From sequence record MT446422.1: DNA of 64,000 nucleotides; one strand, given 5' to 3'. This document shows positions 1 to 20,556 of this stretch, in pieces. The position numbers and the translations under genes are program-made. Origin of the DNA: Escherichia virus TH57. The first letter of the stretch is position 1, and each line of letters begins with the position of its first letter. The notes beneath the pieces are model-generated. The model searched no databases, was not told the origin of the DNA, and saw only the letters and a program-made list of their open reading frames with translations.

Positions 1-44
1 CATCTTAATTACAAGCGTTACGCCTGTCAACTAAATCACGATAA

Positions 45-66
45 CAAAAAACCCCCTTTCGGGGGC
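45..66 (-). terminator. Rho-independent terminator downstream of the methyltransferase gene
   Basis: Plus-strand A-run followed by CCCCC-TTTC-GGGGG hairpin; on the minus strand this reads as hairpin plus T-run just after the ORF ending at 108. Confidence 0.5.
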
Positions 67-107
67 GGGTCATAGTCAACCGCTTTAAACCAGCTTGCCG
101 TTGCAAG

Positions 108-809
108 TCAGAGATCGTCGAACGAGCTAATCCAGACTCTACGATCTTCCTGGAAGGCAGGCAAGCGCGGCGCACCTAATTCACGCAGACGGTCGCGGTG
201 GATAGCCAGCACCGGCGGCGCGCCTTCTTCATTGCGGCGGTGGAAATGACGTGAGAAGATCAGCAGCGACGAGGCGAACCCGGACGACTGAGGTTTCACA
301 CCGTTGGCCCACACCGGCAACTGGAAGGTGATGCGCCCTTTGATATTGAAAATGCAGTCTGCAGGGAAGTCGGATAACTCGTCAGGCCACCAGCTTTCGC
401 TAGGGGCGTGCTTCGTCAGCAGGCAGATATTTGCGCCGTTGTCGCGCTCCTCCTTCACCTTCGCCATGATATTCAACATCCCGGTGTACGGCTCATCGTC
501 ATGCTCAAACGGACGGCTGTACGGTGGGTTGCCGTAACACCATGCGCCAGCGCCACCGTATTTCAGGGAGTCGCCATGCCAGTCCTGCACCAGCGCGTTG
601 TTTGCCTGGCTGTAGTAGTGGTCGCATTTGGAGTTCTGCCCGTCGGTAAACAGGTCCAGCGCGAACCGGCTTCCGTTGGTAACGAACGCCTCGATGCCAC
701 AAAACTCCAGGTCAGGCGTGCGCCACTGGTCCCCGATCTCTTTGAGGTCGTGAAAGTCCTGCATCTTAATGTCGATCAGCTTTTCCAGGTATGGATTCAT
801 CCGGCTCAT
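108..809 (-). CDS. DNA N6-adenine methyltransferase, phage Dam-like family
   Basis: Track ORF 108..854; NPPY catalytic motif (CYGNPPYS) plus WRTPDLEF and SKCDHYY blocks typical of phage Dam-type MTases; start moved to internal Met (residue 16) that overlaps the stop of the upstream ORF; GC-rich unlike the phage backbone. Confidence 0.55.
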   Translation of the reverse strand: MSRMNPYLEKLIDIKMQDFHDLKEIGDQWRTPDLEFCGIEAFVTNGSRFALDLFTDGQNSKCDHYYSQANNALVQDWHGDSLKYGGAGAWCYGNPPYSRPFEHDDEPYTGMLNIMAKVKEERDNGANICLLTKHAPSESWWPDELSDFPADCIFNIKGRITFQLPVWANGVKPQSSGFASSLLIFSRHFHRRNEEGAPPVLAIHRDRLRELGAPRLPAFQEDRRVWISSFDDL

Positions 810-1051
810 TGACCACCTGCCAGTTTTGCAAGGCGCTCCTCTAACTGCCACCATTCCTGTTTACGGGCATCCGCGCCGCACTGCATGATGTCCACCCGGC
901 ACGGCAGTTTGGTGAGCGTCACAAAGATGCGATTCTCATCGCTGCCGCCTTTGCGGATGATGGCGGTCTGTGCGGCCCACGCCAAAGTGAGCGTCGGGTG
1001 GTTCTTAACCTTGTGCTCGATGCGCTCGCGGAAAGTGATGAAGTTCCCCAT
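806..1051 (-). CDS. hypothetical protein (GC-rich module, coupled to the methyltransferase)
   Basis: 81-aa ORF, same strand and same GC-rich composition, stop overlaps the downstream MTase start; no recognisable motif. Confidence 0.35.
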   Translation of the reverse strand: MGNFITFRERIEHKVKNHPTLTLAWAAQTAIIRKGGSDENRIFVTLTKLPCRVDIMQCGADARKQEWWQLEERLAKLAGGQ

Positions 1052-1068
1052 TAATCTGTTACCCCGTA

Positions 1069-1629
1069 TTGCTTTTTAAGGTCGTCGAGTGCGATCTGCA
1101 GCAGTTGCATCTGGTAGACCGCCTCCCCGTTTTTTTCGAAAAGCTTAGTGATAAGTACACTCTCAAAGAATTAACGTTAATATTCATGTCAAACCTGGTC
1201 GCGAACCAGGATGCATGGATAGGCGATATAAGTGATGCCGATGCTCTGATATTTTATAGGGAATACATCGGCAGACTTAAAAGAATTAGACAAGTATACG
1301 AAGATGATATAAAGAATATCTATTACTTCAGTAAGAAAGTCGAAGTCAAATCGCTTCAAGAGATTTTCGAGTATAATACTAAAGTGAATACAAGTTATAT
1401 TTTCAAACTTCTCCAATCGAATGTTATCTCATTTGAAACGTTTTGTTTGCTTGATTCATTTTTAGATATTATAAATAAACATGATGAACAGACTAACGAC
1501 TTGGTTTGGGAAAAGTATTCAACCAAACTAAATGCCTATAAGAAAATCTTAAATATCGATTCTCTTGAAGCTCGTAAATTGTTCATCGAGACCGTTAAAA
1601 ACTGTCAAATAACGCTTCAAGCACTTTGA
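1069..1629 (+). CDS. 59: gene 59 helicase-loader homolog, N-terminally truncated; possible pseudogene
   Basis: Immediately upstream of gene 32 on the same strand as in T4; AT-rich phage-like sequence and gp59-like sequence (KLSDKYTLKELTLIF, SNLVANQDAWIGDISDADALIFYREYIGRL, as recalled from T4 gp59, not database-checked) begin only at ~1120; track ORF starts with TTG at 1069 inside GC-rich DNA, first ATG at 1186; at most 186 aa versus 217 aa in T4. Confidence 0.5.
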   Translation: MLFKVVECDLQQLHLVDRLPVFFEKLSDKYTLKELTLIFMSNLVANQDAWIGDISDADALIFYREYIGRLKRIRQVYEDDIKNIYYFSKKVEVKSLQEIFEYNTKVNTSYIFKLLQSNVISFETFCLLDSFLDIINKHDEQTNDLVWEKYSTKLNAYKKILNIDSLEARKLFIETVKNCQITLQAL

Positions 1630-1637
1630 AGTATAAT
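1613..1637 (+). promoter_or_regulatory. T4-type middle promoter for gene 32 (MotA-box variant CGCTTCA, 12 nt, TATAAT)
   Basis: MotA-box-like CGCTTCA followed 12 nt later by TATAAT, ~55 nt upstream of the gene 32 ATG, inside the 3' end of gene 59. Confidence 0.5.
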
Positions 1638-1689
1638 TAATACGTAATCAAAACAACTGCTAAAAATCAAATAATCTAAGGAAAATCAT

Positions 1690-2601
1690 ATGTCTATGTT
1701 TAAACGTAAAAACCCTGCTGACCTGGCTGCTTCCCTTAACGCTCTGAAAGGTGGTTCTGGTTTCTCTTCTGACGATAAAAAAGAATGGAAACTGAAAGAT
1801 ACTGATGGCGTCGGTTCTGCGGTTATTCGTTTCCTGCCTTCCAAAAATGAAGAAAATCCATCTCCGTTCATCAAGCTCGTTAATCACGGCTTTAAAAATG
1901 GCGGTCAATGGTATATTGAAAACTGTACTTCTACCCACGGCGATTATGAAAACTGCCCTGTGTGTGCGTACATGAATAAGAATGACCTGTACAACACAAA
2001 CGAATCCGAATATCGTAAACTGAAGCGTAATACTTCTTACTGGGCTAACATCCTGGTCATTAAAGACCCTGCTGTTCCGTCTAACGAAGGTCAAGTATTT
2101 AAATATCGCTTCGGCAAGAAAATCATGGACAAAATTAACCAGATGGTTGAAGTCGATGTTGATATGGGCGAAACAGCTATTGATGTAACTTGTCCTTTTG
2201 AAGGTGCAAACTTTGTACTGAAATCTAAACTGGTTTCCGGTTATAAAAACTACGATGATTCCAAATTCATGAACCAGTCTGAAATCGCTGGTATCAATGA
2301 TGAAGCATTCCAGAAAAAACTTTGGGACGAAATGTCTGACCTGAATGAATTGCTGGTGTTTAAATCCCTTGAAGAGAATCAGAAGAAATTCTCTAAAGTA
2401 ATGGGTACAGCTGCTCTTGGTGGTGCTGCTTCTAAAGCCGCTGCACAAGCTGATAAACTGGGCGCTGACCTGGACGATTTTGATAAAGATATGGAAGACT
2501 TCACTTCCAGCAAACCTGCTAAGTCTGAACGCACTGCGACTGCTCCAAGCACTCCAGAGCCTTCTGATGATGGTCTTGACGACCTGCTGGCTGGCCTTTA
2601 A
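1690..2601 (+). CDS. 32: single-stranded DNA-binding protein gp32
   Basis: 303 aa; N-terminus [61 protein letters not shown] and acidic Asp/Ser-rich C-terminus closely match T4 gp32; strong SD AAGGAAA. Confidence 0.95.
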
Positions 2602-2606
2602 TATAA

Positions 2607-2630
2607 GGGACCTTAGGGTCCCTTTTTTAT
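2607..2630 (+). terminator. Rho-independent terminator after gene 32
   Basis: GGGACC-TTAG-GGTCCC hairpin followed by a T-run. Confidence 0.7.
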
Positions 2631-2643
2631 TTTCAAAAAGTAG

Positions 2644-2672
2644 TGTACAAGTCCTTTGAGCTAAGGCATAAT
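2644..2672 (+). promoter_or_regulatory. T4-type early (sigma70-like) promoter
   Basis: TGTACA, 17 nt, CATAAT; the -10 and downstream leader are nearly identical to the copy at 20986-21034. Confidence 0.55.
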
Positions 2673-2715
2673 GATTCCATACTGAGTTACACGATAAACA
2701 ACTGAGGAAATTAAA

Positions 2716-3084
2716 ATGATGGAAACTGGTAAATTTTATACATTAGACCCTGCTGCCAAAAAACAATTCATCGCTGGTAGCCCTGATGACAATTCGCGCA
2801 TGGTCAAGCTGATGGAACAGCATGGCAGTTCCTTCAAAGTCCTGGATATGTGCTTTATTGATGGCGATTATTTTGTTGAAAAAGTTGAAATGAAAGATGG
2901 TACCATCTTGGATAGTATGGATGATGCTGATGAGTACTTTGAACTCGCTGAATGGGAATTCCGCCACTTCCTGGAAGTTGATGAAGATGCTCCTGTTGTT
3001 GACACGCAAACCATTCATGTGCAGGTTAATCACAAAAATGCTGCTGAAGTCATTGCCTTGATTAAAGCTACCTTTGGAATTTAA
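2716..3084 (+). CDS. hypothetical early protein (paralog family with 3404..3766 and 17128..17670)
   Basis: 122-aa ORF with SD GAGGAAA; shares N-terminal GKFY...AKKQFIAG and C-terminal DDYFEL...EEEF motifs with 3404..3766. Confidence 0.5.
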   Translation: MMETGKFYTLDPAAKKQFIAGSPDDNSRMVKLMEQHGSSFKVLDMCFIDGDYFVEKVEMKDGTILDSMDDADEYFELAEWEFRHFLEVDEDAPVVDTQTIHVQVNHKNAAEVIALIKATFGI

Positions 3085-3085
3085 T

Positions 3086-3340
3086 ATGACTAAAGATGAT
3101 TTCCTGGATGCAGTAGAAAAAGCCAGCGAACAGTTTGAAGTGATGGGTGTACGTGTCCATAAAGACCGAAATTACGGACTTGATGTTCAAACGTATTCTC
3201 TATGGCTTGTAGGCGAGCATAGTCTTGTAACCACTTTAGTTATGGGTGTAGATACTTATCCTTTGTTAGTCAAGTTCAGAAGTCTGGAAAAAGCTACTAA
3301 AGAAATGACCAAACTTGGTAAATGGCTCGACAAAATTTAA
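3086..3340 (+). CDS. hypothetical early protein
   Basis: Track ORF 3074..3340 begins at TTG; first ATG at 3086 (MTKDDF). Confidence 0.4.
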   Translation: MTKDDFLDAVEKASEQFEVMGVRVHKDRNYGLDVQTYSLWLVGEHSLVTTLVMGVDTYPLLVKFRSLEKATKEMTKLGKWLDKI

Positions 3341-3403
3341 AAAGTTGTTTGCACTATCTTTAAACATGATATTATACCTATCAAAACAAATGAGGAAATT
3401 AAA

Positions 3404-3766
3404 ATGGAAATCGGCAAAAAATATGAGTTCAATCCAAATCGTATTAAATCTTTCATTGATAATAGTTCATCGAATGCTAGTATGGTTGACATCATCCAAG
3501 AAAATGGTGGTTGGTTTGAAGTTAAATCAATATCAAGGGCAGACGGTCTTGATTATGTAACCGAAATCATTTGCGCTAACGGTGCAATCTATAATGATGA
3601 TGGTATGGGTGATGATTATTTTGAACTTAGTGAAGAAGAGTTTTATTGCTTCCGAGAATACTCCAGTTATACAAAAACACCTTCAGGAGCGGTTTCTATT
3701 AATTGTGTTGTAGATGCTAATAACGTCGACCAAATCATTGAACTTCTGCAAAAAGCTTTCAAATAA
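3404..3766 (+). CDS. hypothetical early protein (paralog of 2716..3084)
   Basis: 120-aa ORF, SD GAGGAAA; shares motifs with 2716..3084. Confidence 0.5.
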   Translation: MEIGKKYEFNPNRIKSFIDNSSSNASMVDIIQENGGWFEVKSISRADGLDYVTEIICANGAIYNDDGMGDDYFELSEEEFYCFREYSSYTKTPSGAVSINCVVDANNVDQIIELLQKAFK

Positions 3767-3769
3767 CAG

Positions 3770-3805
3770 TTTACAAAGGGTCTATGGTTGAGATATTATA
3801 GACCT
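3770..3805 (+). promoter_or_regulatory. T4-type early promoter with dyad symmetry across the -10
   Basis: TTTACA, ~17 nt, ATATTA/TATTAT; inverted repeat GGTCTAT...ATAGACC flanks the -10. Confidence 0.45.
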
Positions 3806-3828
3806 ATCAACTACCTGAGGAAAATAAA

Positions 3829-4056
3829 ATGGCTAAAGTTAATATTGATATTGTTGATTTTGAATACACTTACGAAGTTATCCGTAATCGTTATCCTTCT
3901 TTGAGTATGACTTATATTAAAGATACCCAATTCTTCAGTATCCAAATTGAAATCCAAGGTCCTCTTGAAGACCTTACTCGTTTTATGACTGACGAGTATT
4001 GTGATGGTATGCATGTTGAAGATGCTGAATTTTATATGGGCTTAATCCAAAAATAA
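3829..4056 (+). CDS. hypothetical early protein
   Basis: 75-aa ORF with SD GAGGAAAA 7 nt upstream. Confidence 0.45.
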
Positions 4057-4058
4057 AT

Positions 4059-4093
4059 GTTTACAACAGGCTATGGTAATGATACTATAGCCT
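4059..4093 (+). promoter_or_regulatory. T4-type early promoter with dyad symmetry across the -10
   Basis: GTTTACA, 17 nt, TACTAT; inverted repeat AGGCTAT...ATAGCCT. Confidence 0.45.
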
Positions 4094-4114
4094 TACCAAC
4101 TTGAGGAGAATAAA

Positions 4115-4354
4115 ATGAAATTACAACGTGAGAGCATCAAAGATTCAGAAGTTAAAGGTAAATGGTACTTCACAATCCAGGGTAACAATCCAGAAGCTCT
4201 GGAAAAAGCTGAAGAAACTTTGTGTGCAATGGGTTGGAAAGATGAGTGTGATGGTTGTCCTCTTTATGAAGATGGTAGCTCATCTGGTTTCTGGATTCAT
4301 CACTCTGACGTTGACCAATTTAAAGCTGACTGGAAAGTCGCTAAGAAAGCGTGA
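4115..4354 (+). CDS. hypothetical early protein (Cys-containing, 79 aa)
   Basis: ORF with SD GAGGAGAA. Confidence 0.45.
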   Translation: MKLQRESIKDSEVKGKWYFTIQGNNPEALEKAEETLCAMGWKDECDGCPLYEDGSSSGFWIHHSDVDQFKADWKVAKKA

Positions 4355-4364
4355 GGAAAATAAT

Positions 4365-4724
4365 ATGTCCGACATTCATGTAACCGGAATTACCCAAGTA
4401 AGAATTCATTGCCAACTTAAAACTGCACCCGGGATGGCTTATATTAATTTATCACATGACCTAGATTCTCGCGAAAGTCTGTTAACTGGTGTAATTACGT
4501 TTTACACTGGAATCGGCGGAAACGAATTTACTGTAGGCGAGATTGTTGGTCATAAATTAAAAGTTCAGAAGAACGTGTTAGAACTTTTTAATGACCTTTA
4601 TGATGATAGCGATGAAGTTTTTGATGAAATCACACAAGCAGTTAACAAAGGAATGGTAACTTTAGTTAAAATGATTAACTCTATTGGATATGCTCCTGAC
4701 CCTTTTCGATGGGAGATAATATAA
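4365..4724 (+). CDS. hypothetical early protein
   Basis: Track ORF 4128..4724; start placed at Met 80 (MSDIHV), which has SD GAGGAAAA. Confidence 0.45.
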   Translation: MSDIHVTGITQVRIHCQLKTAPGMAYINLSHDLDSRESLLTGVITFYTGIGGNEFTVGEIVGHKLKVQKNVLELFNDLYDDSDEVFDEITQAVNKGMVTLVKMINSIGYAPDPFRWEII

Positions 4725-4816
4725 TTTTTGTATTTGAGTTTATGAATGATGAATTCTATTATGCAATGCTTTAAAAATTGTATAGTCTTGATTTAAATGA
4801 ATTTGAGGAAAATATA

Positions 4817-5154
4817 ATGCTTACTGAATACACTTGCTTTGCTAAAGATGATGCACATCCTGAACTGATTCTTGAAGTTAAGGTTAATACGCTTGAACAA
4901 AAATTTGATTGGAGCCTTTACATCTATCCTAAAAATATTATTGATGGTCCACAGAAATATACGCTTAATGACAAGTGCATTAGTGGTATCATTGGATATG
5001 GTACAAGTGGAAGCAAGTATTCATTAGAAGATATTCGTCAATCTCGTTGTGCGGTATCATATTTTGATACAGATATAATTAAACATCTTTATAAATTGGT
5101 TCTTGATATTCGCAAAGATTTTACTGCCATCAAAAAGGCAACTAAGGAATTAAA

Positions 5155-5158
<4 letters not shown>
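4817..5158 (+). CDS. hypothetical early protein
   Basis: Track ORF 4778..5158 begins at TTG; ATG at 4817 follows SD GAGGAAAA. Confidence 0.45.
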
Positions 5159-6817
<1,659 letters not shown>

Positions 6818-6878
6818 TGAAAATTCAAATTGCCGGTGTTATATTTTTGGTCGTAATGGTCGGGCTTAACTTCCTACT

Positions 6879-7178
6879 ATGAAAGCCTGTCGGGTTGTTA
6901 ACAAATATCAATCCGACTTTGATGTGAATATTCAACGGGGTACCATGTGGGGGAACCCATATAAAGATGGTACCCGAGAAGAAAACATAAAGAACTTTAA
7001 AGAATATTTCATAGCAAAGATTAAATCGGGTGAAATCAAAAGAGAACACCTTGAAACCCTTCGCGGAATGCGATTAGCTTGTACATGCAAACCAAAAGCA
7101 TGTCATGGGGATATCATCGCTCTGGTCGTTAACAAACTTTTCAAAGACACCTTTTCGCTCGAGGATTTGGGCGCATAA
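6879..7178 (+). CDS. conserved small protein, DUF4326-like
   Basis: 99 aa; WGNPY ... LACTCKPKACHGDII pattern resembles the DUF4326 family; between td and nrdA. Confidence 0.4.
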   Translation: MKACRVVNKYQSDFDVNIQRGTMWGNPYKDGTREENIKNFKEYFIAKIKSGEIKREHLETLRGMRLACTCKPKACHGDIIALVVNKLFKDTFSLEDLGA

Positions 7179-7187
7179 ATACGATTC

Positions 7188-7222
7188 CGCTTCAGGGTCA
7201 TGTGTTATTATAAGCATGACCC
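7188..7222 (+). promoter_or_regulatory. MotA-box-like middle promoter overlapping a perfect 8-bp hairpin upstream of nrdA
   Basis: CGCTTCA then ~11 nt then TATTAT; inverted repeat GGGTCATG ... CATGACCC (8-bp stem, 12-nt loop) spans the -10. Confidence 0.4.
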
Positions 7223-7243
7223 CATTTTATAACAGAGGAAAAC

Positions 7244-9499
7244 ATGCAAGTACAAAAAAGTAGTGGCGTATCTCAAGATTTTGATGGCCAGAAAATTATT
7301 AAAGTTCTTTCCTGGTCATGCGAAGGAACCAATATCGACCCGTATGAATTATACGAAACAATCAAACCACATCTGCGCGATGGTATGACTACTCGCGATA
7401 TTCAGACGGTTATCATCAAAGTGTCTGCTGGACTTATCTCGGTTGAAGAACCAGATTACCAATACGTTGCGGCGAAGGCTACGATGTTTGCTCTGCGTAA
7501 AGATGTTTATGGCCAGTTCGAGCCACGTTCTTTTATTGACCAGATTTCTTATTGTGTCAATGAAGGCAAATATGACCCGGAGCTGTTGTCAAGCTACTCG
7601 GCTGAAGAGATTACTTACCTGGAATCTCGTATCAAGCACGAACGTGATTTTGACCTGACTTATGCAGGCGCGATGCAGTTGAAAGAGAAATACCTGGTTA
7701 AAGATAAAACCACTGGGAAAATCTATGAGACTCCGCAGTTCGCTATCATGGCCATCGGCATGGCACTGCATCAGGATGAACCAACGGACCGTCTGAAGCA
7801 CGTTTGTCGTTTTTATGATGCAGTATCCACGCAGCAGATTTCGTTGCCCACACCTATCATGGCGGGCGCCAGAACACCTACCCGACAGTTCAGTTCATGC
7901 GTGGTTATCGAAGCTGCTGACTCCCTGAAGTCAATTAATAAGACTGCTAATTCAATCATCGAATATATCAGTAAGCGTGCAGGTATCGGTATCAACGTTG
8001 GCATGATTCGTGCTGAAGGTTCGAAAATTGGTATGGGTGAAGTCAAGCATACTGGTGTTATTCCGTTCTGGAAACATTTCCAAACGGCTGTTAAATCCTG
8101 TTCACAAGGTGGAATCCGTGGCGGCGCTGCTACTGCTTATTATCCTATTTGGCATTTGGAAGTTGAAAATTTACTCGTTCTGAAGAACAACAAAGGCGTT
8201 GAAGAAAACCGTATCAGGCATATGGACTATGGTGTCCAGTTGAATAACCTGATGATGGAACGACTGGCCAAGAATGATTACATCACTCTGTTTAGTCCAC
8301 ACGAAGCTGGCGGTGAATTGTATTATTCATATTTTGATAACCCGGATAAATTCCGTGAGTTATATGAAGCCTTAGAAAAAGACCCATCAGTTCGTAAGAA
8401 ACGTATCAAAGCAAAAGATGTATTTGAATTATTCATGACCGAACGTTCCGGTACAGCCAGGGTTTATCCACAATTCGTTGATAACGTGAATGACTATACT
8501 CCGTTCATCCGCGATAAGGCTCCGATTCGTCAATCAAACCTTTGCTGCGAAATTGCAATCCCGACTACTGATGTGAACAGCGAAGACGCTGAAATCGGAT
8601 TGTGCACATTGTCTGCATTTGTTCTGGATAGTTTTGACTGGCAGGACCAAGATAAGATTAACGAGCTAGCCGAAGTTCAAGTTCGTGCTCTTGACAACCT
8701 GTTGGACTATCAGGGTTATCCGGTTAAAGAAGCTCTGAAAGCCAAAAAACGCCGCAACCTGGGTGTTGGGGTTACTAACTATGCTGCATGGCTGGCAAGC
8801 AATTTCGCTTCCTACGCTGATGCAAACGATTTAACGCATGAACTGTTCGAGAGATTACAATATGGCCTTATCCGAGCATCAATCAAGCTCGCCAAAGAAA
8901 AAGGACCTTGCGAATATTATTCAGACACTCGTTGGGCTCGAGGCGAATTACCTATCGACTGGTACAATAAAAAGATTGACCAAATCGCAGCTCCAAACTA
9001 CGTTTGTGACTGGGCGCAGTTGCGGGAAGACCTGGTTGAACATGGCATCCGTAATAGCACATTATCAGCACTTATGCCTTGTGAGTCATCTTCCCAAGTT
9101 TCTAACAGTACAAACGGTATCGAACCTCCGCGTGGACCAGTCTCTATTAAAGAGTCAAAAGAGGGTTCCTTTAATCAAGTCGTGCCCAATATTGAGCACA
9201 ATAAAGGATTGTACGATTACGCATGGGTGTTAGCTAAGCAGGGTAACAAACCTTATCTGACCCAAGTCGCGATTATGTTGAAATGGATTTGTCAGTCAGC
9301 ATCGGCGAATACGTATTATGACCCGCAGAATTATCCGAAAGGAAAAGTTCCGATGTCAGTTATGCTTGACGACTTGATGTACTTCTGGTATTTTGGTGGA
9401 AAAAACCTTTATTATCATAACACTAGAGATGGTTCCGGTACAGACGATTACGAAATCGAAGCTCCTAAAGCAGAAGACTGCTCCGCCTGTAAACTTTGA
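7244..9499 (+). CDS. nrdA: ribonucleoside-diphosphate reductase, alpha (large) subunit
   Basis: 751 aa; class I RNR large-subunit active-site motifs (NLCCEI, ALMPCESSS) and C-terminal Cys pair. Confidence 0.95.
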   Translation: MQVQKSSGVSQDFDGQKIIKVLSWSCEGTNIDPYELYETIKPHLRDGMTTRDIQTVIIKVSAGLISVEEPDYQYVAAKATMFALRKDVYGQFEPRSFIDQISYCVNEGKYDPELLSSYSAEEITYLESRIKHERDFDLTYAGAMQLKEKYLVKDKTTGKIYETPQFAIMAIGMALHQDEPTDRLKHVCRFYDAVSTQQISLPTPIMAGARTPTRQFSSCVVIEAADSLKSINKTANSIIEYISKRAGIGINVGMIRAEGSKIGMGEVKHTGVIPFWKHFQTAVKSCSQGGIRGGAATAYYPIWHLEVENLLVLKNNKGVEENRIRHMDYGVQLNNLMMERLAKNDYITLFSPHEAGGELYYSYFDNPDKFRELYEALEKDPSVRKKRIKAKDVFELFMTERSGTARVYPQFVDNVNDYTPFIRDKAPIRQSNLCCEIAIPTTDVNSEDAEIGLCTLSAFVLDSFDWQDQDKINELAEVQVRALDNLLDYQGYPVKEALKAKKRRNLGVGVTNYAAWLASNFASYADANDLTHELFERLQYGLIRASIKLAKEKGPCEYYSDTRWARGELPIDWYNKKIDQIAAPNYVCDWAQLREDLVEHGIRNSTLSALMPCESSSQVSNSTNGIEPPRGPVSIKESKEGSFNQVVPNIEHNKGLYDYAWVLAKQGNKPYLTQVAIMLKWICQSASANTYYDPQNYPKGKVPMSVMLDDLMYFWYFGGKNLYYHNTRDGSGTDDYEIEAPKAEDCSACKL

Positions 9500-9537
9500 T
9501 ATAATTATGCTCATGGATGAGCTATTGAGGAAATAAA

Positions 9538-10716
9538 ATGAGTACAGTTTTTAATACCACTCCGGTGGATGTTTTAGCCGAGCCTATGTTTTTTGGTTCA
9601 GGATTGGGGATTGCCCGTTATGATATCCAGCGTCATAAAGTTTTCGAAGAATTAACAGAAAAGCAATTATCATTCTTCTGGCGTCCAGAGGAAGTAAACC
9701 TGATGATGGACGGAGCCCAATTTAATAAGCTTCCTGAACATCAACAAAATATTTTTACCAACAACCTGAAATACCAATCACTTCTGGATAGTATCCAGGG
9801 TCGTGCTCCAGCTGCAGCATTAGCCGCATTAGTTTCTGACCCAAGTCTTGATACATGGATTCAGACCTGGACATTCAGCGAGACAATTCACTCTCGTTCT
9901 TATACGCACATAATGCGAAATCTTTATACGGACCCGGCGAAGGTATTCGACGAAATCCTGTTAGATGATGCAATCATGAAGCGCGCAGAATCCATCGGTC
10001 ATTACTATGATGATGTTCTGAATAAAACTCGTCAATGGCAAAACCAGATTGCTTTTGTTGAACTGGCCAAAGAAACTCCCGAAGCGGACGAACGTTTGGA
10101 ACGAGCTATCAAACAAGAATCTATCGCCAAACGAGCATTGATGAAGTCTCTTTATCTCTGCCTGCATGTCATTAATGCCCTGGAAGCCATTCGTTTTTAT
10201 GTATCTTTTGCTTGTACTTTCAACTTCCATAAGAACATGGAAATCATGGAAGGCAATGCGAAGATAATGAAGTTCATCGCCCGTGATGAACAGCTCCACC
10301 TTAAGGGGACTCAATATATTCTTCGTCAGTTGCAGACTGGTACCGACGGTGACGAATGGGTTAAAATCGCACATGAATGTGAAGCAGAAGCCGCAGCCAT
10401 TTTCATGGAAGTTAATCGCCAGGAAAAAGAATGGGCCGTGCATCTGTTTAAAGATGGTGGACTTCCTGGGTTGAGCGTCGAGATTCTTAACCGGTTCATC
10501 GATTACCTGACGGTTTCTCGTATGAAGCAATGCGGTCTCCCGTGTGAAATCGTGTTAGAATCTACTAAGCACCCGATTCCATGGATTCGCGAATATCTTA
10601 ACTCTGATAATGTGCAATCAGCACCGCAAGAAGTTGAGTTGTCTGCTTACCTGGTAGCCCAGATTGACAATGACGTCGATGAGAACGTTCTTGCTGGTTT
10701 CCGTAAATATCTATAA
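9538..10716 (+). CDS. nrdB: ribonucleoside-diphosphate reductase, beta (small) subunit (uninterrupted, no intron)
   Basis: 392 aa; R2-type sequence with di-iron ligands (ETIHSRSY, ALEAIRFYVSFA, RDEQLH); continuous ORF. Confidence 0.95.
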   Translation: MSTVFNTTPVDVLAEPMFFGSGLGIARYDIQRHKVFEELTEKQLSFFWRPEEVNLMMDGAQFNKLPEHQQNIFTNNLKYQSLLDSIQGRAPAAALAALVSDPSLDTWIQTWTFSETIHSRSYTHIMRNLYTDPAKVFDEILLDDAIMKRAESIGHYYDDVLNKTRQWQNQIAFVELAKETPEADERLERAIKQESIAKRALMKSLYLCLHVINALEAIRFYVSFACTFNFHKNMEIMEGNAKIMKFIARDEQLHLKGTQYILRQLQTGTDGDEWVKIAHECEAEAAAIFMEVNRQEKEWAVHLFKDGGLPGLSVEILNRFIDYLTVSRMKQCGLPCEIVLESTKHPIPWIREYLNSDNVQSAPQEVELSAYLVAQIDNDVDENVLAGFRKYL

Positions 10717-10721
10717 GGAAA

Positions 10722-10738
10722 GGGCTTCGGCCCTTTTT
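10722..10738 (+). terminator. Rho-independent terminator after nrdB
   Basis: GGGCTTCGGCCC hairpin followed by TTTTT. Confidence 0.6.
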
Positions 10739-10742
10739 GTCT

Positions 10743-11153
10743 ATGAAACAAATCGCTGACGAATACAGTTTTATAAAATACGCGGAGTTGGAGTTAGTCG
10801 ATGGTAAAATCCCTATCCTTACTCTCGCAAACAAGAAAAATGTTATCTATGCTATTTCAGTTGATGATGAACTAGTGTATATTGGTAAGACGAACAACCT
10901 TAAGAAGCGTATCAACTATTACCGGACTGCAATTAACCGAATCGAACAGACGAGTGATTCAAACAAATCCCGGATGATACATGAAGCTTTACAAGAAGGC
11001 AAAAAGGTGGTATTCTATGCACGACAATGTTTCAATCTGTCAATGACCAATGAGCTTGGCACGATGTCAGTCGAAACTATGTCTCTGGAAGAGCCGATGT
11101 TCATCAAGCTTTTTAATCCCCCGTGGAATTACCAACATAAGGTGAAGAAATGA
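10743..11153 (+). CDS. denA: endonuclease II (GIY-YIG family)
   Basis: 136 aa from ATG at 10743 (MKQIADEY); GIY-YIG-like VIYAISVDDELVYIGKTNNLKKRINYY; FYARQCFNLSMTNELGT and KLFNPPWN match T4 DenA; position after nrdB as in T4. Confidence 0.8.
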   Translation: MKQIADEYSFIKYAELELVDGKIPILTLANKKNVIYAISVDDELVYIGKTNNLKKRINYYRTAINRIEQTSDSNKSRMIHEALQEGKKVVFYARQCFNLSMTNELGTMSVETMSLEEPMFIKLFNPPWNYQHKVKK

Positions 11154-12286
11154 TTGAATTATATGACAACTTAATGAAGCTGTGCGCCGAATCTGAAAAA
11201 GGTAAGTTTTTCTATACTGATTTCGTTTCTCCATTTGAAACTAAGTTCCGCATCTTTAGCTATAACTATGCTTCCTATAGTGATTGGCTACTGGATGATG
11301 CACTTGAATGTCGCGGCATTATGTTTGAAATGGATGACAATGGCCCAGTTCGCATTGCGGCCCGTCCTATGGAAAAATTCTTTAATCTGGGTGAGAACCC
11401 AATGACCATGGACCTTAACCTTGATGAAGTTGTCCTGGTTACTGCAAAAGCTGATGGTAGTTTGGTTTCCACTTATATGGACCAGACCAATATCGCCTTT
11501 AAATCCAAAGGGTCAATCAAAAGCTCACAAGCTGCAGAAGCTCTGCAGGTGTTTAAACAACCTCATCGTGAAGCGTTCAGGGCGCGTGTGACTGAAATCA
11601 CTGAAGCTGGATATACTTGCAATATGGAATATGTTGCACCAACCAATCGCATTGTTCTTCCTTATCAGGAACGTGACCTGATTTTGCTGAACGTTCGTCA
11701 TAATGAAACTGGTGAATATATTCCTTATCCTGAATTGTTCAAAGATGCTGCGCTCCGTCCTTTCCTGGTTGAAGCATATGACCCGGCGAGCATTGAGAAT
11801 GTTCGTGGTATGAAAGAGATTGAAGGCTTCGTCTATGAGCTGGCGAGTGGTCAGAAGTTCAAGATGAAAACAGAATGGTATTGTGCTCTACATCATACCA
11901 AAGACTCCATTAATAATAATGAGCGACTGTTTGAGGTTGTTGTTGCTGGCGGGGCTGATGATGTTATTGCCATGTTTACTGGCGATGATTACGCTCGTGA
12001 AAAAGTTAATGCCTTTACCATTGTACATCTGGATTATCTGTCCAACACTCTTGGACTGTTGCTTGATGCACAAAAACAGTTAGCAGGAAAAGACCGTCGC
12101 GAGTTTGCGATTAAAGGTCAAGAGTTGTGTAAACCATACCCGGGATTGTTCTCCGTATTAATGAACACCTATCAACGCCCACAGGAAACTGAACAAACGA
12201 TTGCTCAAATCAATAAAGTTTTCCTTAAAAATCATAAACTTTACATTCCGTTGGACTACCAGGCGGAAGTAATCCTTCCTGAATAA
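11150..12286 (+). CDS. rnlA: RNA ligase 1
   Basis: 378 aa; FRIFSYNYASYSDWLLDDALECRGIMFEMDDNGPVRIAARPMEKFFNL and lysine nucleotidyl-transferase motif TAKADGSLVSTY match T4 Rnl1 (gene 63). Confidence 0.9.
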   Translation: MIELYDNLMKLCAESEKGKFFYTDFVSPFETKFRIFSYNYASYSDWLLDDALECRGIMFEMDDNGPVRIAARPMEKFFNLGENPMTMDLNLDEVVLVTAKADGSLVSTYMDQTNIAFKSKGSIKSSQAAEALQVFKQPHREAFRARVTEITEAGYTCNMEYVAPTNRIVLPYQERDLILLNVRHNETGEYIPYPELFKDAALRPFLVEAYDPASIENVRGMKEIEGFVYELASGQKFKMKTEWYCALHHTKDSINNNERLFEVVVAGGADDVIAMFTGDDYAREKVNAFTIVHLDYLSNTLGLLLDAQKQLAGKDRREFAIKGQELCKPYPGLFSVLMNTYQRPQETEQTIAQINKVFLKNHKLYIPLDYQAEVILPE

Positions 12287-12296
12287 TAAAAAGGGG

Positions 12297-12325
12297 TGTA
12301 CAAGCCCCTCCTTTCTATACATAAT
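12297..12325 (+). promoter_or_regulatory. T4-type early promoter
   Basis: TGTACA, 17 nt, CATAAT; the first ATG of the downstream track ORF lies inside the -10, so the CDS start was moved to 12357. Confidence 0.5.
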
Positions 12326-12356
12326 GGTTCCATCAACTACTGATGAGGACCAAAAC

Positions 12357-12590
12357 ATGTTAAACTTAATTACAAATGACAGAGTTACACAGGCATATGG
12401 TGACAGAAATGATGGAATCTATGTCTACAAGGGAGACCGCCGGATTGGTTTCATTACTGACCTGAAGGCCAAATTGTTAAAAGAATTGAAAGCCCAAACA
12501 AGTGATTCTGGGTTTAGAGCAAGAGCCAAAAAGAAAGATGAGCGCCTGGGTGCCAACTCTTTTGGTCCTAGAGGTTACAACCGCTACTAA
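12357..12590 (+). CDS. hypothetical protein, stand-alone paralog of the N-terminal domain of the following alc-like gene
   Basis: 77 aa from Met 12 (SD GAGGA); YGDRNDGIYVYKGDRRIGFITDLKAKL parallels YGDRHDGIYVYKGTKKIGLMTDLRKKL in 12604..13107. Confidence 0.4.
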   Translation: MLNLITNDRVTQAYGDRNDGIYVYKGDRRIGFITDLKAKLLKELKAQTSDSGFRARAKKKDERLGANSFGPRGYNRY

Positions 12591-12603
12591 TGAGGAAAAT
12601 ATT

Positions 12604-13107
12604 ATGGATATGCAACTGATTTCAAACGAAATGATTGTCAATGAATATGGTGACCGCCATGACGGAATTTATGTCTATAAAGGGACCAAGAAAATTGGTC
12701 TCATGACTGACCTGCGGAAAAAACTCGCCTCCAATAAAAAGTTGAAGGCGAAACAAAAAGAATATCGTGATAAAAAATCAGAAGAGCGGAAAGAAGCACT
12801 GCATGAATCTGTTCCTGAAATGGTTGACTTCTTAAAGAACCATTTGGTTAAATATGATGCAGAAGTGTTCATTAACCAGACCCAACCTAATGTACATATC
12901 AATGGATGTGTTTGTTATGTTGTGGTTGAACCCCTGACACTTCAACACCGCCTGGGGATTAAACACCCAGTGTTAACCCAGGATGATATGGCGGATGAAG
13001 TTGGTAATCAGTTCCGCATTTCAGCGTCTGACAGTACAAATCACATCCTCCTGAATGGTTTATCCCAGGATGATATTGTTGAGGTAATCATCAAGTTATG
13101 CAAATAA
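12604..13107 (+). CDS. alc: putative Alc (host-transcription inhibitor) homolog
   Basis: 167 aa, same length as T4 Alc by memory, and sits between rnlA and pseT as in T4; assignment by synteny and size only. Confidence 0.4.
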   Translation: MDMQLISNEMIVNEYGDRHDGIYVYKGTKKIGLMTDLRKKLASNKKLKAKQKEYRDKKSEERKEALHESVPEMVDFLKNHLVKYDAEVFINQTQPNVHINGCVCYVVVEPLTLQHRLGIKHPVLTQDDMADEVGNQFRISASDSTNHILLNGLSQDDIVEVIIKLCK

Positions 13108-13451
13108 GTAATCTCACCGCAGGGCTTATGCTAGCCCTGGTAGTAACTGCTGGTAGTGGTTTCTATCTAAAAGCAAAAGTAGATAATCTCAAGACAGCGG
13201 TGGCGGAAGTCACCAAAGTTGCAGAAGATAATGCGAAAAATCTGCAATCAGTAAAAGACCAGATTAATCAAATTAATCTCCTTGACCAGGAGCGTCAGGA
13301 ATATGTTGAACTTCTGCAGAAGGAAAATGATAAACTCCGTGCGGATGCAAAACGTACTAAGGTTGTGGCAGCGAAGCCTAAATTAGTTGAAAAACAGATT
13401 AATCAGTCCTTTGATAAGTTTGCCCAGGACTTCCAGGAGCTCACCAAATGA
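13098..13451 (+). CDS. i-spanin (Rz-like inner-membrane spanin, pseT.3-like)
   Basis: 117 aa; N-terminal transmembrane helix LTAGLMLALVVTAGSGFYL followed by a charged coiled-coil domain; start overlaps upstream stop. Confidence 0.6.
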   Translation: MQISNLTAGLMLALVVTAGSGFYLKAKVDNLKTAVAEVTKVAEDNAKNLQSVKDQINQINLLDQERQEYVELLQKENDKLRADAKRTKVVAAKPKLVEKQINQSFDKFAQDFQELTK

Positions 13452-13738
13452 TGAAATCTATCATGGCAGTATGTTTGGCTATTGGGCTCGTTTCATGTGC
13501 CCAGAAGCCCGTTGTGGAGCCCACAATCCAAGTTCATCCTAATTGGCCTGTTGCATTGGCTGATTACAAGCAGCAATGGGAAGTGAGGGTAATTGATGGC
13601 CAGGCCTGGGTTGGTATGCCTTTTGAAGCATCGCAAGAATTTAGAATCTGGCTGAACGATGTAAAAAGGTATGTACATGACCAAAAAGGTATGTTATGTT
13701 ATTATCGTTCTGAACTAAAAGAGGAGCGTTGCAAATGA
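13448..13738 (+). CDS. o-spanin (Rz1-like outer-membrane lipoprotein, pseT.2-like)
   Basis: 96 aa; signal peptide with lipobox LVSC; ATGATGA overlap with the i-spanin gene. Confidence 0.6.
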   Translation: MMKSIMAVCLAIGLVSCAQKPVVEPTIQVHPNWPVALADYKQQWEVRVIDGQAWVGMPFEASQEFRIWLNDVKRYVHDQKGMLCYYRSELKEERCK

Positions 13739-13843
13739 TTGAGGCGTGTACTGACGGATGGGATATCTTTCGATTTGGTGCTGCATGTTTTTGTTTTGGA
13801 ATCGTGTTTAGCATGTGCATGCATGGTATTTTTGGAAAGTAGT

Positions 13844-13871
13844 GTACAAACTCATGGGAGCAGAGTATAAT
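13844..13871 (+). promoter_or_regulatory. T4-type early promoter
   Basis: TGTACA, 16 nt, TATAAT. Confidence 0.5.
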
Positions 13872-13905
13872 GCTCCTACGGATTATAAAATTTGAGGAAA
13901 TGACT

Positions 13906-14384
13906 ATGACTTTACGTGATAACAGTTTTGTGGCTAAGCCTGAATACATTTCAAGTATTAAATCTCCTGTATTACAAAAGCTCTTAAAATTAGGGTCCTG
14001 CGCAAGTACACCGATTGAAAAGAAAGCCACTTTCAATTATACTTGGACTAATATAAATGGCATTGATGTAATAAAACAGGTAACTTTTTATGCTCCGGGT
14101 GCTATTGAGCCTTCGCAGATTATTAATCTTGAGGAATACCAATATGTTCCACTTCAATATTGGTATCGTATGATGCTCCCTGTGTGGGAATACCCTGAAT
14201 TCATTGAAGAGTACAATGAAAAAGAACGTATTCGCGAGCTAGTAAAAAGTTTTGAATATGCAGCTAAACGCCATGGTCAAATGCAAGCTGCCGCTACACT
14301 TGGTGATGTTTCTGAAAGCGCAGCTTATGAAACTGGTAAAATCCTTAAAACTTGTCGCGAAGAACTTTATAAGGAGCTTGGTGT

Positions 14385-14388
<4 letters not shown>
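13906..14388 (+). CDS. hypothetical protein
   Basis: Track ORF 13870..14388; first ATG lies in the promoter -10; start placed at Met 13 after SD GAGGAAA. Confidence 0.45.
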
Positions 14389-16249
<1,861 letters not shown>

Positions 16250-16275
16250 TGTATGTCCTCTTTGGTGATATACTA

Positions 16276-16283
16276 TATTTATA
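16276..16283 (-). promoter_or_regulatory. T4 late promoter (TATAAATA) for the HNH gene
   Basis: Minus-strand TATAAATA ~25 nt upstream of the HNH ATG, followed by SD AAAGAGGA. Confidence 0.5.
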
Positions 16284-16310
16284 CTCAAGTAGTGGAGATG
16301 TGGAAAACCT

Positions 16311-16508
16311 ATGAATAATATCGAAAAGATTTTTCGTACAATCGAAGAGATTGAAAAACGTTACGAATACTTTTTCAGTGTATGGCCTTTAACTGACGGA
16401 CGTATTGGCCTAGATGTAATGGACTACAAAGATGAAGACAAGGTCGATGGCGGTATTTTTAAATCCGCGCCGGAACTCCTTGCCTTCTTGGAAGAACATT
16501 ATGTATAA
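16311..16508 (+). CDS. hypothetical protein
   Basis: 65-aa ORF. Confidence 0.35.
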   Translation: MNNIEKIFRTIEEIEKRYEYFFSVWPLTDGRIGLDVMDYKDEDKVDGGIFKSAPELLAFLEEHYV

Positions 16509-16716
16509 CAAACATCATGAAATTGAAGAAGAAGCTTATAAAGAGCTTCAGAAACTGGTAGGGCAAAATATGTCTCCTGCTCTTATCAACAACCTGGCTG
16601 CACTGCGTAATGACATCAACGAACGGTACAAGGGCGAATATTATGTTGAATTCGTTCCGCTGACTGAAGTCATTGACCGATTTATCGTTAATGTCAGGGT
16701 GCATACCGTCCATTAA
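16501..16716 (+). CDS. hypothetical protein
   Basis: Track ORF 16432..16716; ATG at 16501 overlaps the stop of the upstream ORF. Confidence 0.35.
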   Translation: MYNKHHEIEEEAYKELQKLVGQNMSPALINNLAALRNDINERYKGEYYVEFVPLTEVIDRFIVNVRVHTVH

Positions 16717-16741
16717 CGCTTTAAAAATTTTATGGTATAAT
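16717..16741 (+). promoter_or_regulatory. MotA-box-like middle promoter
   Basis: CGCTTTA, 12 nt, TATAAT, then GGGGTCTAGGTCC resembling the conserved GGTTCTAGACCC element. Confidence 0.45.
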
Positions 16742-16788
16742 GGGGTCTAGGTCCTTTGGATAATCCCAATAACTAAGCGAGAAAAGAA

Positions 16789-17067
16789 ATGTTTCCTACA
16801 TATTCTGAAATTGTTAAAGTAGTTTTTAGTCAGATTTTATCTGATTATCTATACGAAAGCGTCGACGTGTCGACTGAACTAAAAGTACACGGTCGTTTGT
16901 CTGCTATTCTGGAAATCATGTTCCCGGATGCAGTTGATGCAATCACTGTCCAACTCACGTCTGGTGCAGCATTCGCAATTGTTCCGTTTAAAATTGATGG
17001 AGCCACTTTGACCGTTTCGTGCAAGGTTGACTTCCAAAATCAAACTGCAATTGCAGAAGCAATTTAA
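16789..17067 (+). CDS. hypothetical protein
   Basis: 92-aa ORF downstream of the middle promoter. Confidence 0.4.
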   Translation: MFPTYSEIVKVVFSQILSDYLYESVDVSTELKVHGRLSAILEIMFPDAVDAITVQLTSGAAFAIVPFKIDGATLTVSCKVDFQNQTAIAEAI

Positions 17068-17069
17068 GT

Positions 17070-17098
17070 GTTTACTTTCACCACGGATGGTGTATAAT
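17070..17098 (+). promoter_or_regulatory. T4-type early promoter
   Basis: GTTTAC, 17 nt, TATAAT. Confidence 0.5.
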
Positions 17099-17127
17099 GA
17101 ATTTCATCGACACATGAGGAAAACAAA

Positions 17128-17670
17128 ATGAGTAATTTCTTTGAAGAAGGCAAGTTTTACAAATTTGTATCTGAAAATGCCAAAAAACAATTTATTGCCG
17201 GAGGCTGGGCAGCTAATTACCAAATTGCTGGATACATCGGTATGACTCCGTTTGAAGTTAAGATTTTACCTGATAATGTTAGCGGCGGTAAAAAAGTTTG
17301 TGAGATTCGTTTGATTGATGAAAATGATTTTGTGGATTTGGCAAAAATATCTGGCACACAGAACAGGCATCATGGAGCAATATTTGTTTCCAATGGTCCT
17401 TTGTCAGATGAATTTGAATATTTCATCCAGGTAGAAGTTGGTGTTAAGCCAGAAGTTGAGCCTGTACCAGCGAAACTTGCATCAGTTTGGAAATTGCTTG
17501 TGGTTAAAAATGGCAAGATTGAGATTAACTCTCGTCATACGTCAAAAGAATACGCGGAAGGCGAAGCCGAGCGTTTGTTAAACCGCGGTACTGCAGAAGA
17601 TTGTTATATTATCAAAGGTGATATCACAAAAGCTTCTATCGTTAAACAAGTAAAACAGGAGACAATCTGA
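17128..17670 (+). CDS. hypothetical protein (N-terminus paralogous to 2716..3084)
   Basis: 180 aa; N-terminal EEGKFYKFVSENAKKQFIAGG matches the GKFY...AKKQFIAG motif of 2716..3084; SD GAGGAAAA. Confidence 0.45.
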   Translation: MSNFFEEGKFYKFVSENAKKQFIAGGWAANYQIAGYIGMTPFEVKILPDNVSGGKKVCEIRLIDENDFVDLAKISGTQNRHHGAIFVSNGPLSDEFEYFIQVEVGVKPEVEPVPAKLASVWKLLVVKNGKIEINSRHTSKEYAEGEAERLLNRGTAEDCYIIKGDITKASIVKQVKQETI

Positions 17671-19050: not shown

Positions 19051-19052
19051 TT

Positions 19053-19377: not shown

Positions 19378-19383
19378 TAATAC

Positions 19384-19731: not shown

Positions 19732-19740
19732 AATTAGCGT

Positions 19741-20551: not shown

Positions 20552-20556
20552 GTTCA

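Follow-up and report, generated by a model that had tools for sequence, protein, structure and literature searches.

A Dam-family methyltransferase operon at the left edge of the Escherichia virus TH57 record MT446422.1 probably belongs to a siphophage fragment fused artefactually to a T4-like genome

The window analysed here (64,000 nucleotides of record MT446422.1, Escherichia virus TH57) consists of two parts of different phage lineage that meet at one exactly placed junction; a gene is truncated on each side of it, and the same T4-like strain exists elsewhere without it. We consider it very probable that two co-sequenced genomes of different phages have been fused artefactually in the window, and we infer that the join was made in vitro or in silico and not in a cell. 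Positions 1-1130 are an internal stretch of a JS26-like Casjensviridae siphophage genome of ~60 kb and carry that phage's own Dam operon, in which the Dam gene is preceded by the end of a gp41 homolog and an 81-aa gene and followed by a terminator. Positions 1131-64000 derive from a Gaprivervirus (T4-like) coliphage. Both genomes are interrupted within a gene at the T-run (1130-1136) where they meet; a chimeric read, a template switch during library preparation, or an assembly mis-join or concatenation would have brought them together. The methyltransferase is not a gene of the T4-like phage. The features on which this reading is based are listed in Table 1.

Table 1. Features of the window, from left to right.
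Feature	Position	Strand	Evidence
Foreign segment	1..1130		Colinear homology to JS26 and two uncultured relatives; GC 56.4%; 6 GATC
Intrinsic-terminator-like hairpin (GCCCCCGAAAGGGGGT), T-run at 41-50	51..66	-	Consensus scan
Putative phage Dam-family N6-adenine DNA methyltransferase, 233 aa, JS26 gp43 homolog	108..809	-	PF05869, TIGR01712, PHROG 111
81-aa gene, JS26 gp42 homolog	806..1051	-	ORF and sequence; same-place 81-aa gene in JS26 and SRR25474832_609100
JS26 gp41 homolog (102 aa), last 25 codons and stop only, cut at the junction	1051..1128	-	Minus-strand reading compared with JS26
Junction, run of 7 T	1130..1136		Siphophage homology up to 1130-1134, T4-like identity from 1131
3' part of gene 59 (helicase loader), residues 58-222 of 222	1131..1629	+	Pfam, PHROG 269, comparison with native gp59
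Ordinary Gaprivervirus (T4-like) colinear segment, gp59 through gp10	1131..64000		Corresponds to SRR11772948_87, 80,183->17,314
Gene 32 (ssDNA-binding protein), first intact T4-like gene	1690..2601	+	Anchor for finding the same strain elsewhere

The first-pass annotation had described the first ~1.1 kb as GC-rich (~55-60%), set it against ~38% GC for the remainder of the window, and placed the switch inside gene 59 at ~1120. Recomputation confirmed that composition is not uniform, with 56.4% GC at positions 1-1130 versus 41.2% at 1131-64000; the lower figure needs correction, as 38% is true of 1130-3000 only. The GC content of the left segment lies 5.8 SD above that of equal-sized windows taken elsewhere in the stretch (z = 5.8), the highest of which reaches 49.6%. 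The maximum-likelihood change point in composition falls at 1129 and the break in homology at 1130/1131, inside gene 59 as proposed. Third-position GC follows the same division, at 0.74 for the Dam gene and 0.73 for the 81-aa gene versus 0.36-0.39 for gp59 and gp32. The composition of the segment therefore shows no amelioration.

Throughout its length, the left segment is colinear with siphophage DNA. Positions 1-1134 align with 19720-20857 of Serratia phage JS26 at 80.8% DNA identity and with Logan contig SRR25474832_609100 at 80.4%, and positions 1-1051 align with the IMG/VR contig UViG_3300011525_000002 at 78.6%. The order 102-aa gene, 81-aa gene, Dam is common to JS26 and SRR25474832_609100, and the IMG/VR contig contains this gene set too, with an additional gene separating the gp41 homolog from the 81-aa gene. 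In JS26 (Casjensviridae, Dunedinvirus), the gp41-gp42-gp43 block at 19492-20749 is alike in order, sizes and couplings (a 102-aa product, an 81-aa product and a Dam of ~235 aa); it is likewise followed by an intergenic hairpin and then the next gene, its GC content is similar, and the GATC density of the phage is normal. Unlike its JS26 counterpart, the ~80% identical block in the window breaks off within gp41 and continues as T4-like DNA. Judged from these alignments, positions 1-1130 are assigned to the genome of an unsampled JS26-like (Casjensviridae, Dunedinvirus-like) siphophage; given an identity to JS26 of only ~80%, the donor would be an unsampled species or genus-level relative. Because siphophage homology reaches the first base of the window, the supposed module has no visible left boundary.

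The gene content read from the left segment in the first-pass annotation, namely a minus-strand phage Dam-family N6-adenine methyltransferase with an NPPY motif, coupled to an 81-aa ORF and provided with its own terminator, was upheld. The predicted methyltransferase exceeds both curated cut-offs, matching Pfam PF05869 'Dam' at E 2.6e-28 (99.2 bits, cut-off 28.1) and the NCBIfam equivalog TIGR01712 phage_N6A_met at 101.6 bits (cut-off 97.05), and it also matches PHROG 111 DNA methyltransferase. Catalytic motif IV, (D/N)PP(Y/F), is present as NPPY at residues 94-97 of 233. Amino acid identity is 87% to JS26 gp43 and 86% to the best match among 5.8 billion protein clusters, and PF05869 is carried by all 109 of the Dam homologs found at E<=1e-10. 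On this basis, the product is classed as a member of the phage Dam family PF05869 / TIGR01712, with which it shares a small size (~230 aa), a phage-borne location, the NPPY motif and an orphan state, no cognate nuclease adjoining it. Among the characterised members of this family are the Dams of phages T1, HP1 and VT2-Sa/933W, which are specific for GATC. In its native siphophage the enzyme would methylate adenine, probably in GATC to judge by its family, and so protect GATC-rich phage DNA. The searchable library yielded nothing relevant on the specificity of PF05869, and a PDB sequence search with the Dam returned no relative with a solved structure.

The 81-aa gene overlaps the Dam start by ATGA, as JS26 gp42 and gp43 do, and the two genes are predicted to be translationally coupled; the 81-aa product had zero matches in Pfam, PHROG and NCBIfam. 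Upstream, the TAA of the gp41-homolog tail overlaps the ATG of the 81-aa gene (TAATG). Read on the minus strand, this tail is GEAVYQMQLLQIALDDLKKQYGVTD, compared with ...HGEAVYQMQLLQIELDKLKKQYGVE in JS26 gp41. The hairpin, located 42 nt downstream of the Dam stop, has a 6-bp stem (5 G-C pairs) on the minus strand at 66->51, followed by TTTTTGTTAT, and an identical hairpin is found in UViG_3300011525_000002.

The first-pass annotation had also raised an assembly chimera with host or prophage DNA, and here it was right in kind and wrong about the partner, which is a JS26-like phage and not a host or lambdoid prophage. A bacterial host or prophage, in place of a second free phage, as the source of the segment is very unlikely, even though bacterial chromosomes and prophages also carry PF05869 Dams (Shewanella, Morganella, Providencia and Salmonella, at 38-46% identity) and the GC content would suit Enterobacterales such as Serratia or Klebsiella. 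At DNA level the nearest relatives (78-81%) comprise a Casjensviridae phage of virulent type and contigs of phage size that share the gene order, and the IMG/VR relatives of the Dam all lie on contigs of 25-63 kb, four of the five being ~60 kb and none T4-sized. An E. coli host or prophage origin of positions 1-1140 was rejected, as megablast found nothing matching in 5,426 complete E. coli genomes. PLSDB contributed a single weak match (88 bp at 77%, in an Enterobacter hormaechei plasmid record), and a conserved 30-mer was absent from the 100,044 species representative genomes of GTDB.

To the right of the junction, the window is colinear with Gaprivervirus genomes (Shigella phage SP18; Escherichia phages ECML-359, P896, TH54 and VR20/25/26), which share the order gp59, gp32, frd, td, nrdAB ... 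gp23 ... gp18 ... gp10. SP18, VR20/25/26, P896 and TH54 are the best phage matches, and colinearity with ECML-359 is maintained at 93-97% apart from small indels. The similarity thus places positions 1131-64000 within Gaprivervirus (Straboviridae, Tevenvirinae). In reverse complement, positions 1131-64000 are identical to the Logan contig SRR11772948_87 (95,886 bp), with 0 mismatches and 0 gaps in the 47,884 nt compared (1131-13084, 15977-38037 and 50132-64000) and a coordinate span equal to the length of the window's T4-like part. Since other relatives are only 93-98% identical, this contig is taken to represent the same strain. It passes the junction point into a native 222-aa gp59 and continues through gp33, dsbA, rnh and gp34-37. 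Unlike the window, it and the Gaprivervirus genomes have the full 222-aa gp59 after gp33, dsbA and rnh, and lack the GC-rich piece. The exact 303-aa gene 32 product was found on 23 contigs, with gp33 and a full gp59 upstream in all eight of the places shown.

The junction itself is abrupt. Compared with SRR11772948_87, the window matches perfectly rightwards from 1131 and falls to 20.5% identity, the random level, over the 200 nt to the left. T4-like homology begins 170 nt into the 669-nt gene 59, so that the gene lacks its first 56 codons and 2 nt of codon 57, replaced by the siphophage segment. In keeping with this, Pfam T4_Gp59_N is matched only at profile positions 44-93 of 93 while T4_Gp59_C is matched in full, and the match of the gp59 remnant to PHROG 269 covers profile positions 52-210 of 211. 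The gene on the other side is truncated as well, with 25 of the ~102 codons of the gp41 homolog left. Chimeric contigs and reads from mixed-phage or metagenomic sequencing have the same character: lineage, composition and oligonucleotide signature switch within one base, the gene on either flank is incomplete, no other sequence has the junction, and an independent assembly follows the native path.

We searched for the junction or its products in INPHARED phages, complete E. coli genomes, PLSDB, IMG/VR, JGI metagenomes, GTDB genomes and a 153-billion-gene index. The junction occurs in 0 of 91 related phage records and in 0 of the public contigs searched. The junction 54-mer was not found in IMG/VR, and the 30-mer ending at the junction is absent from JGI metagenomes and GTDB genomes. 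A conserved 33-mer to the left of the junction retrieved from IMG/VR only a 78.6% relative, in which the native continuation follows. In exact look-ups, which included the 153-billion-gene index, the Dam (as 233 and 248 aa) and the 81-aa protein proved unrecorded, and so did the gp59 ORFs of the chimera, at 186 and 147 aa.

As to how the join arose, microhomology at the junction amounts to at most a few bases (the T-run, possibly TTTCGA in both parental lineages), and the two sides visibly share neither a long repeat there nor a k-mer of the length that a de Bruijn-graph mis-join would need. Remnants of Nextera and TruSeq adapters are absent from the window as a whole and from the junction. 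With no adapter and no long shared repeat, a chimeric molecule or read accounts for the join better than a graph error at a repeat would. The HindIII (1141-1146) and BstBI (1135-1140) sites that adjoin the join suggested an origin by cloning or from a linker, which was rejected because the T4-like parent has both sites natively. The parental siphophage was found in no assembly of run SRR11772948; hence, it is by inference that both phages are placed together in one sample.

The same T-run and possible TTTCGA microhomology would suit illegitimate recombination in vivo just as well. A recombinant that is real but defective, produced by a microhomology-mediated illegitimate join in gene 59 when a Gaprivervirus and a Casjensviridae siphophage co-infected one cell, and sequenced as a minority species of a mixed infection or lysate, is nevertheless unlikely. 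The absence of an adapter or linker at the join speaks for it, as does the possible presence of the microhomology in both parental lineages. However, the independent assembly of the identical strain keeps the native gp59 path, the recombinant gp59 would be without its N-terminal domain, and a second occurrence was found nowhere in the databases searched. The hosts probably differ too, as the left piece, at 56% GC, has relatives among Serratia, Klebsiella and Aeromonas phages while the right belongs to a coliphage lineage, and the join would bring six GATC sites into a lineage that tolerates none. If true, such a recombinant would be a snapshot of DNA exchange between families, in which a GATC-rich Dam operon entered a lineage purged of every GATC.

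In the 62,870 bp of the T4-like part, 0 GATC are observed versus 217 expected, and the window's six GATC sites are confined to the foreign piece, at 113-1093. Every Gaprivervirus sequence fetched likewise has 0 GATC (~193 kb were counted for the window, ECML-359 and SP18 alone). This lineage-wide absence, noticed in passing, deserves a look of its own; for JS98/SP18-type phages, the searchable library yielded no relevant account of such a void. It had been stated in the first-pass annotation that T4-like phages have their own, unrelated Dam elsewhere. For T4 itself this is correct, in that BLASTP between T4 Dam and the window Dam gave no significant similarity (best E 0.24); the window Dam is unrelated in sequence to E. 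coli Dam as well. For Gaprivervirus it does not hold at the syntenic place of the T4-type dam, where gp56 and gp61 of SP18 are only ~390 bp apart, and T4 Dam as a query found zero matches in the window or in any Gaprivervirus locus examined.

These observations also bear on the reading originally favoured, in which the segment is a functional, horizontally acquired Dam cassette with an anti-restriction role, stable in the T4-like genome. The Dam ORF is intact with its catalytic NPPY, shows coupling to the gene upstream and is followed by a terminator, and T-even genomes do acquire foreign modules in hyperplastic regions. Even so, we regard this reading as extremely improbable. What the window contains is a colinear siphophage fragment that is cut mid-gene and replaces the start of gp59. 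No intact T4-like gene bounds it, gp33 not being seen, and truncation of the upstream siphophage gene leaves the operon without its promoter-proximal part. The segment is missing from the identical strain SRR11772948_87 and from all 91 related records matched, its composition is completely unameliorated, and its six GATC stand in a lineage with none. If GATC-specific like the characterised members of its family, the Dam would be without a target in a 0-GATC genome. Of the marks of a resident cassette, we found neither an intact T4-like right flank, nor presence in the same strain or lineage, nor a complete donor unit or adaptation to the recipient.

Accepting the cassette reading would wrongly credit the T-even accessory pool with a Dam of a second family and would suggest gene flow between families. 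Recognising an artefactual chimera instead flags the record for correction, as its gp59 call is truncated and at least 1.1 kb come from another phage. The left piece samples an undescribed JS26-like siphophage that is only ~80% identical to anything public. For the Gapriverviruses, the GATC void together with the lack of a T4-type dam at the syntenic site constitutes a sharp, testable signature of selection against GATC.

The first 1,130 bases of the window have a G+C content of 56.4%, versus 41.2% in the remaining 62,870 bases, and the richest equal-sized window outside this left piece reaches only 49.6% (z = 5.8 for the left piece). GC3 is 0.73-0.74 for the dam and 81-aa genes on the left versus 0.36-0.39 for gp59 and gp32, and with a two-segment likelihood scan the switch falls at 1129, beside the break in gp59. 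Hence, the GC-rich segment of about 1.1 kb that the first-pass annotation had described, with a switch inside gene 59 near 1120, held on recomputation of composition and codon use, although its figure of about 38% for the rest did not.

From base 1131 onwards, the sequence is 95-97% identical to Gaprivervirus coliphages (ECML-359, P896, TH54, SP18, VR20/25/26); their matches all start at query base 1131 and none extends over the left piece. In a local comparison, 1131-64000 is colinear with ECML-359 with only small indels, its gene order being 59, 32, frd, td, nrdA/B, pseT, cd, 31, 30, alt and the baseplate hub genes, followed by uvsY, uvsW, 24-20, 19-13, wac, 12, 11, up to gene 10. Two stretches of about 680 bp are missing in ECML-359. 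The first (15631-16310), overlapped by an ORF in which a NUMOD3 motif was recognised, probably represents the insertion of a freestanding homing endonuclease; the second (50857-51534) holds an ORF that is called as a gene in Logan contig SRR11772948_87. In SP18 and several relatives, gp59 and gp32 are separated by the segG homing endonuclease (3481-4119 of SP18 locus L002), whereas in the window just a 60-bp intergenic spacer lies between them (1629-1690). The region most divergent from ECML-359, wac/gp12 at 58710-61025, is either uncovered or 68-71% identical, which is typical receptor-binding mosaicism.

At the join, genes on both sides are broken. About 77 codons of the gp41 homolog are absent, and gp59, on the plus strand, begins at residue 58; the match to Pfam T4_Gp59_N starts only at profile position 44 of 93, and that to PHROG 269 at 52 of 211. 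A 186-aa ORF in the mechanical ORF list, with TTG at 1069, was rejected as a natural protein, its first 21 residues being read-through antisense to the siphophage gene. Right of the join, the window is identical to its T4-like parent; left of it, identity to the native upstream T4-like sequence is 20.5%, equal to random. The string TTTCGA occurs near the join in both parental lineages, and microhomology there may range from 1 to about 6-10 nt. HindIII and BstBI sites beside the join were rejected as foreign sequence, both being native to the T4-like parent, and no adapter remnant was found at the join. The junction, and likewise the conserved 30-mer beside it, is absent from IMG/VR, JGI metagenome contigs and GTDB genomes, and no record searched contains the exact chimeric gp59 products, Dam (from either start) or 81-aa protein.

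Features of the window at and around the join and in the T4-like part
Feature	Position	Strand	Remark
Terminator-like G+C-rich hairpin and T-run	66->41	minus	42 nt past Dam stop
Phage Dam ORF, 233 aa	108-809	minus	PF05869, TIGR01712 and PHROG 111 matches
81-aa ORF	806-1051	minus	ATGA overlap with Dam start
gp41 homolog remnant	1051-1128	minus	last 25 residues, GEAVYQMQLLQIALDDLKKQYGVTD then stop; JS26 ends ...HGEAVYQMQLLQIELDKLKKQYGVE then stop
Junction, run of seven T	1130-1136		identity switch to T4-like parent
241-aa ORF, NUMOD3 motif (E 1.6e-4)	15524-16249	minus	overlaps insertion relative to ECML-359
201-aa ORF, no Pfam match	50862-51467	minus	between gp18 and gp19

A gp32 protein identical to that of the window was found on 23 contigs read. 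In all eight places shown, rnh, dsbA, gp33 and a full 222-aa gp59 lie upstream of it, with gp34 also visible in seven. The strain-specific FRD2 paralog (2719-3084) and gp12 short tail fibre, each found on only two contigs, point to the same one, SRR11772948_87 (95,886 bp). This contig equals the window at 1131-13084, 15977-38037 and 50132-64000, with 0 mismatches and 0 gaps in 47,884 nt compared; the matched interval runs from contig base 80,183 to 17,314 and covers 62,870 nt, exactly the length of the T4-like part of the window, which leaves no net indel between the two. Past the junction point it extends 15.7 kb through native gp59, gp33, dsbA, rnh and gp34-37.

The left piece belongs elsewhere. 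Serratia phage JS26, a Casjensviridae siphophage with a genome of 64 kb, aligns end to end with 1-1134 at 80.8% and has gp41 (102 aa), gp42 (81 aa), gp43 (235 aa, Dam), an intergenic gap and gp44 at the homologous region. Logan contig SRR25474832_609100 (80.4% DNA identity) has the same gene order, and IMG/VR UViG_3300011525_000002 (63.5 kb, 78.6%) has the same genes with one additional before the gp41 homolog. All five IMG/VR relatives of the Dam lie on contigs of 25-63 kb, four of about 60 kb and none T4-sized. The best identity anywhere is 80.8% for DNA (JS26) and 86-87% for the Dam protein. Judged by sequence likeness, the donor is an unsampled siphophage, and its 56% GC and relatives hint at a host of the Serratia, Klebsiella or Enterobacter type and not at E. 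coli. A host or prophage partner had been proposed as a fallback; a search of 5,426 complete E. coli genomes gave no match to the left piece, and PLSDB yielded nothing beyond one weak 88-bp match. Given the JS26-like relatives, fusion to host or prophage DNA is very unlikely, and only the chimeric part of that fallback stands.

The simplest account, and one we hold with considerable confidence, is a chimera of two phages sequenced together: an internal siphophage fragment would have been fused to an arbitrary position in the T4-like genome, through a chimeric molecule or read or during assembly. That the sample contained a real, though defective, recombinant molecule is improbable. The GC-rich Dam segment is not a real feature of the T4-like genome.

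The Dam operon itself was read correctly at first pass as a minus-strand Dam-family methyltransferase with NPPY (residues 94-97), coupled to the 81-aa ORF and followed by its own terminator. The Dam product matches Pfam PF05869 'Dam' (E 2.6e-28), lies above the equivalog cut-off of NCBIfam TIGR01712 'phage N-6-adenine-methyltransferase' and matches PHROG 111; the nearest protein in 5.8 billion clusters shares 86% identity with it. It is an ordinary further member of a known family, from an unsampled JS26-like phage. Family membership and gene order suggest that gp41-gp42-Dam most likely forms an early or middle operon in the native siphophage, terminated at the hairpin; in that phage, Dam would shield the GATC-rich phage DNA from restriction by modifying it. 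RefSeq names JS26 gp43 (L001, the JS26 locus, 4109-4816) and its Klebsiella and Aeromonas phage relatives 'phosphoadenosine phosphosulfate reductase'; the GenBank originals of the same entries read N-6-adenine methyltransferase. Because the window Dam covers only positions 285-462 of the 495 in the PAPS-reductase-named PHROG 33262, the label was probably carried over from proteins in which PAPS reductase and Dam are fused, and it misnames the stand-alone Dam.

The T4-like part (1131-64000) has no GATC, against 217.5 expected under a Markov model, and no other 4-mer is so depleted (next lowest observed/expected ratio, 0.65); the window's six GATC sites all fall within 113-1093. GATC is likewise absent from 99.5 kb of ECML-359, 31 kb of SP18 (about 193 kb with the window) and every other Gaprivervirus locus fetched. 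JS26-like phages are near expectation (55/64, 66/78 and 67/79 observed/expected). Characterised PF05869 Dams (T1, HP1, VT2) are GATC-specific; if this one is too, the T4-like genome would offer it no site to protect. The reading initially preferred, in which the segment is a stable and functional anti-restriction cassette belonging to the T4-like phage, is hardly credible: the foreign piece bears a site wholly eliminated in the recipient lineage, gp59 and the donor operon are truncated, and the identical strain lacks the segment.

T4-like phages had been credited with a Dam of their own, which fails for the Gaprivervirus sequence fetched (for SP18, the parts outside 30-143 kb): it contains neither a T4-type nor a PF05869 Dam. 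SP18 has no dam at the T4-syntenic place, gp56 and gp61 being about 390 bp apart (record 15616-16007; 7617-8008 of SP18 locus L030, versus 16785-17935 of T4 locus L029). Such a lack is consistent with the absence of GATC targets from the genome. The interval from uvsX to imm holds segA, beta-gt and gene 42 (dCMP hydroxymethylase) in T4 (L029 22386-26624) and just two hypothetical genes of 176 and 47 aa in SP18 (L030 13867-16027).

We found no report of the Gaprivervirus void in the searchable literature. It could possibly stem from selection imposed by a host system directed at GATC (MutH/Dam, DpnI/DpnII-like restriction) or, alternatively, from a phage nuclease that leaves DNA lacking GATC uncut. 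The void is characteristic of the Gaprivervirus lineage, and depletion is graded over the T-even genera, from T4 (37/101 observed/expected) through RB69 (Mosigvirus, 23/82) and JS98 (Dhakavirus, 6/84) to its completion in Gaprivervirus; this is the item worth passing on.
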